Shown here: positions 42,347-46,100 of the stretch, piece after piece
How positions within the stretch are numbered: position 1 is the first letter of the stretch
How the letters are laid out: every line of letters starts with the position of its first letter
Assembly (NCBI GenBank): GCA_009777445.1
Contig: WRLV01000002.1
Coordinates: 8,256 to 72,255 of the forward strand
Direction of reading: 5' to 3'
From: Oscillospiraceae bacterium
GTDB lineage: Bacteria > Bacillota > Clostridia > Oscillospirales > Ruminococcaceae
DNA: 64,000 nt
Program-made: the position numbers and the translations under genes
The notes under the pieces: model-generated
What the model was told of the DNA's origin: nothing
Database searches by the model: none
Seen by the model: the letters and a program-made list of their open reading frames with translations, nothing else

Positions 42347-42955
42347 ATGAGAAAATTTGGTTATATTCGTGTTAGCGCGTTAGAGCAAAACGAAAGCAGA
42401 CAGTTAGCAACAATGCAGAAATTAGAAATTCCACAAAGCAACACTTTCCTTGACAAGCAATCGGGCAAAGACTTTAAACGCCCAAACTATCAAAAGCTGC
42501 TTGAAATTTTAAAGACAGGCGACATACTTTACATACCGAGCATCGACCGCTTGGGGCGCAATTACGAGGAAATTCAAAATCAATGGCGCGTTTTAACCAA
42601 AGAAAAAGGCGTTGACATCGCCGTGCTTGACATGCCCTTGCTCGATACGCGCTTAAACAAGGATTTAATGGGCACTTTTATAGCCGATTTAGTGCTACAA
42701 ATTCTATCATTTGTGGCGCAAAGTGAGCGCGATAACATTAACAAACGTCAAGCCGAAGGCATAACCGCCGCGAAAGCAAGAGACGTTAAATTCGGCAGAC
42801 CAACAAAAAAAGCCCCCGAAAATTTCGAGGAGGTGGTGAGACAATGGGAGAAAGGAGATTTAGCATTTTCATCGGTTTTAGAGCAGACAGGGCTTAAAGA
42901 AGCCACATTCTATAACCGTTTACGCGAATTCCGCGCCGCGAAAGATAGTAAATGA
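42347..42955 (+). CDS. Small serine recombinase, DNA invertase (Hin/Gin/Pin family)
   Basis: Catalytic-Ser motif [49 protein letters not shown]-terminal HTH. About 202 aa. I preferred the ATG at 42347 over the GTG at 42335. Confidence 0.9.
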
Positions 42956-42982
42956 ACTATAAAAAGGTGTACTTTTTTATAG
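42956..42982 (+). repeat. IR-L, hix-like recombination site
   Basis: aCTATAAAAAGGT-GT-ACTTTTTTATAG: 12-bp half-sites, near-palindromic with 1 mismatch, around an asymmetric GT core at 42969-42970. Confidence 0.8.
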
Positions 42983-43000
42983 CGATTTTGCTATTGTCAT

Positions 43001-43029
43001 ATTTTACCATTTATTTTGAGCAATGTCAA
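43001..43029 (-). promoter_or_regulatory. Consensus extended -10 promoter inside the invertible segment, currently facing the invertase gene (OFF for the LRR gene)
   Basis: The minus strand reads TTGACA (43029-43024), a 17-nt spacer, then TGgTAAAAT (-10 at 43006-43001). Confidence 0.75.
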
Positions 43030-43094
43030 GTGTTTTTTGTAAATTCTTTTAAAATATTTACTGTTTTGGTTTGTTTAACGCCCGAAAAAGCTTA

Positions 43095-43121
43095 CTATAA
43101 AAAAGTACACCTTTTTATAGT
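43095..43121 (-). repeat. IR-R, hix-like recombination site
   Basis: CTATAAAAAAGT-AC-ACCTTTTTATAGt is a perfect reverse complement of IR-L. The core AC is at 43107-43108. Confidence 0.8.
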
Positions 43122-43152
43122 AAAAAATAGTAGCGAACGGAGGGCGCAGGCA

Positions 43153-46100
43153 ATGAAAAAGAGAGTTTTATCAATATTTTTAACAATGGTGATAGTCATC
43201 GGGTTTATTCCGGGTGGAATGTTAAGTGCGAGCGCAGCAGACTCCGGCGATGGTTGGTCGTTAGATGGTGATGGGGTGCTTACTATCGAAAATGACGTTG
43301 GTATGAATGATTGGGTTGACAATTGGCAGTACCGCAACAGACCGGCACTTCGCATAGTTGTTATTCAAGACAGCGTTACATTTATAGGTGATTCGGCGTT
43401 CTCCCAGTACGAGAGTTTAACGAGCGTGACAATTGGCAATGGAGTGACAAGTATAGGTGAGTCGGCATTTAACCTGTGTACGGGGTTGACGAGCATTACA
43501 ATTGGCAACGGTGTGACGAGTATAGGCAATTGGGCATTTAGCAATTGCACGGGGTTGACGAGCGTAATAATCGGCAATGGCGTGACAAGTATAGGCGATT
43601 ATGCGTTTTGGAATTGCAGTGGGTTGACGAGCGTGATAATCCCAGACAGCGTGACAAGTATAGGCGATAGTGCATTTAGAGGTTGCACGGGGTTGACGAG
43701 TGTGACAATCGGCAATAGCGTGACGAGTATAGGCCATTGGGCATTTCAAGGTTGCACGGGGTTGACGAGTGTGACAATTGGAAATAGGGTTGAAACTATA
43801 GAACAGGAGGCATTTCACGGTTGCACGGGGTTGACGGAAATCATAATCCCCGACAGTGTGACGAGTATAGGTCGGGCTGCATTTGGAGGTTGCACGGGGT
43901 TGACGAGTGTGACAATCGGCAATAGCGTGACAAGTATAGACGGTAGTGCATTTTCCGGTTGCGCGGGGTTGACGGAAATAAAAGTTTCGGCCGCCAATCA
44001 AAGACTCGCCGATATAGATGGCGTGTTGTTTAACAAAAACACAACAGAGCTTATACGATATCCGAGTGGAAGAGTAGGAAGTTATAAAATCCCCGACAGC
44101 GTGACAAGTATAGGTAATTTTGCATTTTCCGGTTGCGCGGGGTTGACTGAAATAACAATCCCCAATAACGTAACAACTATAGGTCAGTCGGCATTTGGCG
44201 GTTGCACGAGGTTAACAGAAATAACAATCCCCGACAGCGTGACAAGTATAGGCCCTTATGCATTTTTCGGTTGCACAGGATTAACAGAAATAATAATCCC
44301 CGACAGTGTGACAAGTATAGGCAGTTCTGCATTTTACGCTTGCACGGGCTTGACAGAAATAACAATACCTGATAGCGTGATAAGTATAGGCGAGAGTGCA
44401 TTTTACTTTTGTACTGAATTGACGAGCGTGACAATCGGCAATGGCGTGACAAGTATAGGCGGTTTGGCATTTTCTGGTTGCACAAAGTTAACAAGCGTGA
44501 CAATCGGCAATGGCGTGACAAGTATAGACAGTTCTGCATTTTCCAACACGGCACTACTTAACAATCACCCTAACGGAGTAATTTATGCAGGAAATTGGGT
44601 AATAGGCTATAAAGGAACTATGCCCCCAAATACAAGTATAACATTACGCAATGATACGCGAGGGATTGCCACCTTTGCTTTTCGGGGACAAACAAATCTA
44701 ACCTCAATAACAATTCCCGACAGTGTGACAAATATAGGCATATCTACATTTTTCGGTTGCACGGGGTTGACGAATGTGACAATCGGCAATAGCGTGACAA
44801 GTATAGACGGTAGTGCATTTTTCGCTTGCACGGGGTTAACAGAAATAACAATACCTGATAGCGTGATAAGTATAGGCGAGGGTGCATTTGCAGGTTGCAC
44901 GGGGGTAACAAAAATAACAATACCTGATAGCGTGATAAGTATAGGCGAGAGTGCATTTGCAAGTTGCACAGGGTTAACAGAAATAACAATCTCCGACAGC
45001 ATAACAAGCATAGGCAATTATGCATTTTTGGGTTGCACAGAATTAACAAGTATAACCTTTAAATCTCAAACACCGCCTTCGTTTGGCTCTTATGTTTTCC
45101 AGTATATCCCATCAAACGCGATAATATATGTCCCAATAGGCGCGAAAGCGGCTTATTCAGCGGTTAGCCAGTTAAGCGCGTTTAATATCGTTGAAGTTTT
45201 CTTCTCTTGCGGCGACCATTGCAAGGGCGAAGGCGAATGTGATGAGCCGTGTGCCAAAGCGGCAGTTGGCGATGGTTGGTCGTTGGACGATGACGGGTTA
45301 CTTACTATAATGAATGATATCGGTATGAACCACTGGGTCAATAACGGAAGAGATGTCTACAGAAACGCAGTTCGCGAGATTGTTATTCAAGATGATGTGA
45401 CAAATATACCCAGTTATGCGTTTTTTGAATACGCAAAGCTAACAAACGTAACAATCGGTAACAAGGTTGAAACTATAGGCGAAGGTGCATTTTACAAGTG
45501 TACTGAATTAAAGAGTGTGAAAATCGGTAACAGTGTGACAAACATAGGCGGTGTTGCATTTTTGGGTTGCACGAGCTTGACCGAAATAACAATCACCGAC
45601 AGCGTGACAAGTATAGGCCCTTATGCATTTTTCGGTTGCTCGGGCTTGACGAGTGTGACAATCGGTAACAGGGTTGAAACTATAGGAGAAGAAGCGTTTT
45701 GGGGTTGCACAGAATTAACGAGCATGACTTTTAAATCTCAAACACCACCGGAGTTTGATTTGAGTGTTTTACATGATGTCCCGTCAAGCATGATAGTATA
45801 TGTACCAATAGGCGCGAAAGCGGCTTATTCAGCAGTTAGTGAGTTGAGTAGGTTTAATATCGTTGAAGTTTTTGAACCTTGCGGCGACCATTGCAAAGGC
45901 GAGGGCGAATGTGATGAGCCTTGTGAAAGGATAATCGCTTCCGGTATTGATTGGAAGTTAGACGAGAGCGGATTGTTGATTATAGAGAGTGATGTCGGTA
46001 TGGGTGACTGGATTAGCAACGGACGTAATCCTAATAGCGATTTGTTGCGCGCGGTTGTTATTCAAGATGGTGTTACACGTATAGGGGATTACGCATTTTC

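Follow-up and report, generated by a model that had tools for sequence, protein, structure and literature searches.

A putative promoter inverton with a Sin-like serine recombinase in front of a giant leucine-rich repeat protein gene of an Oscillospiraceae bacterium

The window analysed in this study is a stretch of 64,000 nucleotides (nt) from an Oscillospiraceae bacterium (assembly GCA_009777445.1, contig WRLV01000002.1, positions 8,256 to 72,255 of the forward strand). Within it, a small serine recombinase gene (42347-42955, plus strand) is followed by a short inverted repeat enclosing a promoter-like sequence and then by a gene coding for a very large leucine-rich repeat (LRR) protein (43153-50127, plus strand). 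An earlier note on this DNA had proposed that the adjacent recombinase flips the promoter controlling the LRR gene, and that the assembly captured this switch in its OFF orientation. The results presented below support this proposal, through co-varying crossover cores in related loci, two loci polymorphic for orientation (P0067 and P0083) and a metagenomic orthologue carrying the switch reversed (L119). The element very probably functions, or functioned until very recently, as a promoter inverton for the LRR gene.

The recombinase has 202 amino acids (aa), and its gene is not part of the invertible segment, whose left crossover site it abuts with its 3' end. The Pfam Resolvase domain (PF00239) was found on residues 4-146 (E 1.2e-25), and the catalytic motifs are intact, with R8, S10 (within YIRVS) and DRLGR (within SIDRLGRN) aligned with those of Sin. 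Residues 151-202 gave no Pfam match even at E 10; the alignment with Sin reaches residue 189 and that with the gamma-delta resolvase residue 194. The cargo gene encodes a protein of 2324 aa with a signal-peptide-like N-terminus, BspA-type LRR repeats (17 stretches matching LRR_5, E 0 in Pfam), Cys-rich linkers and a C-terminal dockerin-like segment, for which Dockerin_1 scored 27.6 bits, above threshold, when the last 80 aa were scanned alone. The LRR protein is predicted to be secreted and displayed at the cell surface. The whole module of recombinase, switch and LRR gene is flanked by a polysaccharide deacetylase gene and valS, and there is no transposase in its vicinity.

A repeat scan delimited the two arms of the inverted repeat as 42956-42982 (left crossover site, IR-L) and 43095-43121 (right crossover site, IR-R), each 27 nt long and 100% complementary to the other, with 112 nt enclosed (42983-43094). 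The exact repeat described in the earlier note, 27/27 base pairs (bp) with one flanking base, was thereby recovered; the whole window has just four pairs of perfect inverted repeats with arms of 18 nt or more and 30-500 nt between them. Each arm has a 12-2-12 layout, CTATAAAAAGGT-GT-ACTTTTTTATAG, in which the half-sites agree at 11 of 12 positions, and the crossover core is GT in IR-L (42969-42970) and AC in IR-R (43107-43108), which places the cores 138 bp, or about 13 helical turns, apart. On direct reading this layout, with its single half-site mismatch and its GT/AC cores, was as had been claimed, and all the coordinates given previously were correct, including that of the 26-mer, which starts 1 nt past the recombinase stop codon (42953-42955). 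The window sites differ from the family motif introduced below by 0-1 mismatch (IR-L), and no copy of the crossover site other than the IR-L/IR-R pair was found in the window.

The interior carries, on the minus strand, a TTGACA (43029-43024) separated by a 17-nt spacer from TGgTAAAAT, the -10 hexamer being at 43006-43001. This predicted promoter (43001-43029) would be of the sigma-A type by its consensus match, which is 11/12 with an extended -10 and agrees with the near-perfect sigma-A promoter announced inside the repeats. It is the top-scoring promoter-like site in 41900-43400 and one of 16 sites with at least 11/12 matches on both strands of the window, and a promoter occupies the same relative position in most of the related loci. 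As assembled, it is directed toward the 3' end of the recombinase gene and is in the OFF position for the LRR gene. The end of IR-R is separated from the LRR start codon (ATG 43153) by only 31 nt (43122-43152, plus strand), a short leader that contains a ribosome-binding site (GGAGGG, 43139-43144) and no promoter-like site, and that is too short for a fixed promoter. The promoter scan found no plus-strand promoter-like site between 42529 and 43400, in agreement with the view that the LRR gene has no other obvious promoter. The arithmetic of the flipped state also held: inversion transforms position x into 86077-x, and would bring the -10 to 43071-43076, with a leader of about 70 nt.

The conservation of this arrangement was studied in 80 related loci, taken from one genome per species, with recombinases 59-72% identical to that of the window. 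Their hosts are mostly Oscillospiraceae, Lachnospiraceae, Acutalibacteraceae and other Clostridia. Each locus was searched for the motif AAAAGGT-NN-ACCTTTT, and complementarity of the cores was not a condition of the search. Two sites downstream of the recombinase stop were found in 54 of the 80 loci, the first 6-96 nt past the stop (nearly always 6-30 nt) and the second 103-266 nt further. The cores form reverse-complementary pairs in 51 of these 54 loci, and the pairs themselves vary (GT/AC, AC/GT, CT/AG, AG/CT, TT/AA, AA/TT, and the palindromic GC/GC of L013); in L077 the core reads AT on the plus strand at both sites and is likewise palindromic. Religation by serine recombinases after strand exchange requires the central two bases to pair, and the co-variation is therefore strong evidence for recombination between both sites in inverted alignment. 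The gene that comes next is nearly always encoded on the same strand, with its start 20-80 nt past the second site. Pfam scans of 50 cargo proteins returned BspA-type LRR proteins (4) and AMP-binding enzymes (4), along with a teichoic-acid glycerophosphotransferase, LicD, a family-2 glycosyltransferase, VWA, TadZ-like, Listeria-Bacteroides repeat, ricin lectin, BrxA and other proteins; surface, cell-wall and defence cargo is of the type that is usually phase-varied. The nearest paralogue (P0002, 87% identical and from the same sample) has its own switch before TM2-domain genes, also in the OFF orientation.

Direct traces of inversion were found at two homologous loci. At P0067, represented by ten independent metagenome assemblies with identical flanks, the interior is oriented one way in four (L082, L086, L089 and L090) and is the exact reverse complement in the six others (L083, L084, L085, L087, L088 and L091). 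At P0083, where the flanks are likewise identical, the orientation is split 7 to 1, L097 being the flipped copy, and the two sites of this locus differ at two positions (AAAATGT-CT-ACCTTTT versus AAAAAGT-AG-ACTTTTT). The flipped copy carries the hybrid site AAAATGT-CT-ACTTTTT, which is exactly the product expected if half-sites exchange at the central dinucleotide. For the window switch itself, a metagenome scan with its 26-mer returned 20 loci, mostly from one termite-gut sample. One of them, L119 (termite-gut contig Ga0099364_10007446), contains the window switch with an interior that is 91-92% identical and reverse-complemented. Its right site, leader and ribosome-binding site are identical to those of the window, the signal-peptide start differs by one synonymous change, and TTGACA-17-TGgTAAAAT faces the orthologous LRR_5 gene (1477 aa) directly behind the right site, which is the predicted ON state. 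The promoter is also mirrored, facing the cargo, in four other species (L005, L018, L029 and L046).

Taken with the anatomy of the switch, these comparisons suggest the following course of events. The recombinase would bind the two 26-bp sites and pair them by looping the 138-bp segment; cleavage at the GT/AC cores, rotation and rejoining would then leave the 112-bp interior reversed, and only the inverted alignment would religate, because the core is not palindromic. In the orientation that was assembled, the sole strong promoter would point into the recombinase 3' end, and the LRR gene would be OFF or dependent on read-through. After inversion the promoter would stand about 70 nt upstream of ATG 43153, turning the LRR gene ON. 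A population would then be expected to be mixed with respect to this giant, strain-variable surface protein, which only some of its cells would display. Catalysis by the window recombinase, activity of the promoter and the consequences for expression are all predicted from sequence here, and flipping in the window strain is likewise put forward as probable.

Several observations weigh against this interpretation. No flipped copy of the exact window locus was found: an exact-protein look-up returned one further contig (L001, 98.9% identical over the aligned part), and both it and the window are in the OFF orientation. The promoter is known from its consensus match only, and transcription from it is a prediction. 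L119 has no adjacent recombinase and a different far flank, its distal site carries two substitutions, and it therefore documents a past inversion of this switch, not the present rate of flipping. In about 40 of 45 independent loci, the best-matching promoter of the interior is directed at the recombinase, and this OFF bias could mean that many of the switches flip rarely. The same observations, that is the shared orientation of the two contigs and the similar orientation of the related assemblies, favour a fossil or locked switch, with no or negligible flipping in the window strain and an LRR gene that is silent or expressed by read-through. We nevertheless consider a locked switch unlikely: the arms are identical at 27/27 positions and the catalytic motifs are intact, which decay would erode, while close homologues are polymorphic for orientation and the orthologous switch is flipped in L119.

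An additional feature of the inverton may bear on the bias. Since the recombinase stop nearly always lies 6-30 nt from the first site, a transcript from the OFF orientation would enter the recombinase gene antisense almost at once. We tentatively suggest that such antisense transcription lowers the expression of the recombinase and biases the switch to OFF, a self-limiting behaviour that would explain the roughly 90% of assemblies found OFF. The orientation of the promoter toward the recombinase fits this idea, which the earlier note had raised, and selection against expression predicts the same bias; at the polymorphic loci, the promoter is directed toward the recombinase in 6 of 10 (P0067) and 7 of 8 (P0083) assemblies. 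A weak terminator-like hairpin with a T-run is present on the antisense strand inside the recombinase gene (42831-42813), about 165-180 nt downstream of the predicted start of the OFF-state promoter, and could define a short antisense RNA. Strong terminator-like hairpins were seen at the promoter-distal end of the interior in L032, L035, L047, L065, L008 and L012, where they would insulate the cargo against read-through from the recombinase gene; the window interior has no such promoter-distal hairpin.

The family to which the enzyme belongs was assessed by comparison with known structures and models. The best match in the PDB is the Sin resolvase (2r0q, 103.7 bits, E 8e-29), followed by the gamma-delta and Tn3 resolvases at about 60 bits and by Gin at 40.5 bits, so that membership of the Hin/Gin/Cin/Pin subfamily was rejected. 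Membership of the Mpi-type master invertases was rejected as well, the NCBIfam Mpi model scoring 30.1 bits against a cut-off of 272. The term Hin/Gin-like, as used in the earlier note, is therefore appropriate for the mechanistic class and for the 26-bp, 12-2-12 inverted sites with asymmetric core, but not for the family, since Sin is far ahead of Gin in score. More than 8000 homologues of the recombinase are present in public data, many of them about 70% identical. The closest plasmid relatives are 48-56% identical. In one plasmid of Enterococcus faecium (L121, 1855-1885) and one of Bacillus thuringiensis (L122, 1800-1830), both with recombinases about 50% identical, the gene is preceded at 120-190 nt by one site, TGTCAAAAAGT-AT-ACTTTTTGACA, whose core is palindromic. 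Judged by its sequence and position, this single upstream site looks like a res crossover site, and like the resolvase ancestor of the inverton site. The plasmid relatives share the half-site motif, and the inverton enzymes would therefore retain the DNA specificity of Sin-like plasmid resolvases, while probably acting on two inverted sites with asymmetric cores downstream of their gene. On these comparisons, the window enzyme can be described as a putative Sin-like serine invertase, working in a Hin-like manner and standing outside the Hin/Gin and Mpi families.

This kinship gives some ground to another explanation, according to which the repeats serve as a res-type resolution site, or mark the ends of a mobile element, and the enzyme would be a resolvase or a transposon enzyme. 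Sin and the plasmid resolvases are the closest relatives, a single site with the same half-site motif precedes the gene in plasmid relatives, and some homologues are located inside conjugative elements, beside MobA/MobL or TraG genes. The layout of a Sin/beta-type resolvase system is not what the window displays, however, as just two sites occur in it, both downstream of the gene and in inverted orientation. Resolution requires direct repeats, whereas the sites here are inverted and have co-varying, non-palindromic cores; the interior is precisely inverted, not deleted, at P0067 and P0083; and the window locus is situated between the housekeeping genes mentioned above, away from any transposase. 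We regard this explanation as very improbable. Still less can be said for the palindromes being operators, bound by the recombinase-like protein or by another regulator, that repress the enclosed promoter without recombination, the promoter making an antisense RNA against the recombinase gene: its orientation in most assemblies and the weak hairpin at 42831-42813 would suit such a role, but reverse-complementary cores, mirrored promoters and exact inversions in homologous loci and in L119 are left unexplained, and antisense control is compatible with inversion anyway.

Returning to the promoter inverton, the distance between its two sites follows a regular pattern. Among 59 distinct switches, the core-to-core distances fall into classes of 115, 126-128, 135-139, 145-148, 156-160, 166-168, 176-178 and 188 bp, with outliers at 103 and 223 bp and no switch between classes. 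The class of 135-139 bp is the main one, with 28 switches, including the window at 138 bp, and the class means step by 10.25 bp. Outside the main class, 24-27 of 31 switches are within 2 bp of phase with it (binomial P 8e-6 to 8e-4, a range that depends on the helical repeat assumed). Such statistics are inflated by kinship among the loci, but the emptiness of the gaps is striking. Most simply, synapsis over a loop this short would require both sites to lie on one side of the helix. For the window, we suggest tentatively that looping has this requirement too and is probably assisted by a DNA-bending protein. The interiors of the switches are rich in A-tracts, which together with an HU-like bending protein may help to form the tight, phased loop.

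The same 26-mer site was also found in switches that have no adjacent recombinase (L102, L104, L106, L107, L112, L118 and L119), and these orphan switches suggest that the enzyme acts in trans, so that a single enzyme may serve several switches. L102, L106 and L118 have one flank and a homologous interior in common with L107, whose interior is flipped relative to the shared flank, while the other flank varies among these four loci; recombination between different switches, reshuffling their flanks, is a possible origin. In L119 (5560-7111) the switch lies between the LRR gene and a divergent gene for a NAD-dependent epimerase, which starts 83 nt from one of the sites, and flipping would there toggle the promoter between the epimerase and LRR genes instead of turning one gene on and off.

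Promoter invertons run by serine recombinases are well known, and the window switch can be compared with several such systems. As in Hin/hix of Salmonella and Gin/Cin/Pin of phages Mu, P1 and e14, there is a small serine recombinase with an N-terminal catalytic serine and, presumably, a C-terminal DNA-binding domain, acting with two inverted 26-bp 12-2-12 sites with a non-palindromic 2-bp core, and the segment, like that of Hin, carries a promoter. The window switch differs from Hin and Gin in that its recombinase gene is outside the segment, with the 3' end against a site, and in that the segment has 138 bp compared with about 1-3 kb. Hin and Gin need Fis and an enhancer, and Fis is not known in Clostridia. 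Mpi of Bacteroides fragilis is likewise a serine recombinase flipping short promoter segments before genes for surface structures, and some of its switches are remote from the enzyme gene, in which they can be compared with the orphan switches described above. The site sequence and the phylum are different, and unlike those of Mpi, most switches of the window family are paired with their own enzyme gene. Closest in sequence are Sin of Staphylococcus and the resolvases of Bacillota plasmids, including the beta recombinase; plasmid relatives at 48-50% identity share the half-site motif TGTCAAAAAGT..ACTTTTTGACA with the window. The Sin-type systems have one palindromic-core site upstream, in res, and serve dimer resolution, whereas the window has two inverted, asymmetric-core sites downstream that enclose a promoter. 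Sin and the beta recombinase rely on an HU-like bending protein, and the beta recombinase is able to invert as well as resolve.

Short regulatory invertons of Clostridia (150-230 bp) associated with surface proteins are found among the RecV switches of Clostridioides difficile (cwpV, flgB) and in inverton group 139 (PMC11892184), and resemble the window switch in this respect. The RecV switches are run by tyrosine recombinases, with another chemistry and other sites, and the Clostridia-dominated group 139 is tied to tyrosine recombinases too, according to the recent community-wide survey that highlighted it (PMC11892184). The site of the window family was not found in the accessible part of the supplements of that survey, and a deep-learning survey does not discuss recombinase classes (PMC11602134). 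In the literature searched we found no description of the window switch family, its site sequence included, although the 2019 PhaseFinder study may list members uncharacterised; the same is true of its lineage, of the site, of the minimal and phased geometry, and of the convergent arrangement of promoter and recombinase. A broader proposal is that gut Clostridia harbour a large family of minimal invertons, descended from Sin-like plasmid resolvases, with helical phasing and a self-limiting OFF bias. We offer it as a possibility, in this full form rather doubtful.

The phase variation of surface structures has received much attention in Bacteroides and in pathogens, and far less in the Clostridia that dominate many gut ecosystems. 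The locus offers a testable switch for a giant, cellulosome-style, dockerin-bearing LRR protein, and leads to a family with thousands of members predicted to control surface proteins, cell-wall modification genes and at least one BREX-type gene (BrxA). The conserved, simple site and the 138-bp cassette should help to annotate phase-variable genes in genomes and metagenome-assembled genomes of Clostridia, and the cassette has appeal as a compact genetic switch in Gram-positive anaerobes. How a serine recombinase synapses sites only 13 helical turns apart is a question on which the quantised spacing can be considered a natural experiment.

Two other roles for the switch sequence were considered and rejected. 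A structured RNA is not supported, as the sole match in an Rfam scan of 41900-43500 was a sub-threshold miRNA model on the palindrome itself, and the leader predicted for the ON state is no more stably folded than shuffled sequence (z -0.12). A coding role was suggested by the frame of the LRR gene, which is open for 67 codons upstream of ATG 43153, through the whole switch (42952-43152); in L001, the gene caller placed the LRR start at the ATG equivalent to 42952. An open reading frame running from ATG 42952 into the LRR gene was rejected because ATG 43153 has a good ribosome-binding site and a signal peptide, and because the leader is kept in L119 with the interior reversed. The open frame is probably due to chance, though it is able to mislead annotation.

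The LRR gene itself is strain-variable. L001 matches the window at 98.9% identity as far as 43286 and diverges after that point (L001 3940 onwards), and the orthologue in L119 (1379-5812) codes for 1477 aa compared with 2324 aa in the window. The Cys-rich linkers of the cargo protein (CGDHCKGEGECDEPC) recur between its LRR blocks.

In the loci L082-L099, close homologues of the recombinase and their switch are located inside conjugative or mobilisable elements, with genes for a MobA/MobL relaxase or a TraG coupling protein as neighbours and genes for zinc-ribbon proteins or extracytoplasmic function (ECF) sigma factors as cargo. This location may explain the spread of the switch family over Clostridial families and over bins labelled Synergistaceae, Desulfovibrio and Selenomonas.

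Finally, a repeat of about 70 nt that is rich in CAATTGACAAT and is followed by a small G+C hairpin is dispersed over intergenic parts of the window, at 2288-2356, 15594-15720, 29732-29858, 35239-35295, 36418-36531, 37738-37791, 42041-42112, 42212-42283 and 50212-50270. Two inverted copies flank a terminator-like hairpin (42122-42154) just 5' of the recombinase gene, and another copy lies directly past the LRR stop codon; the module of recombinase, switch and LRR gene is therefore bracketed by this element.

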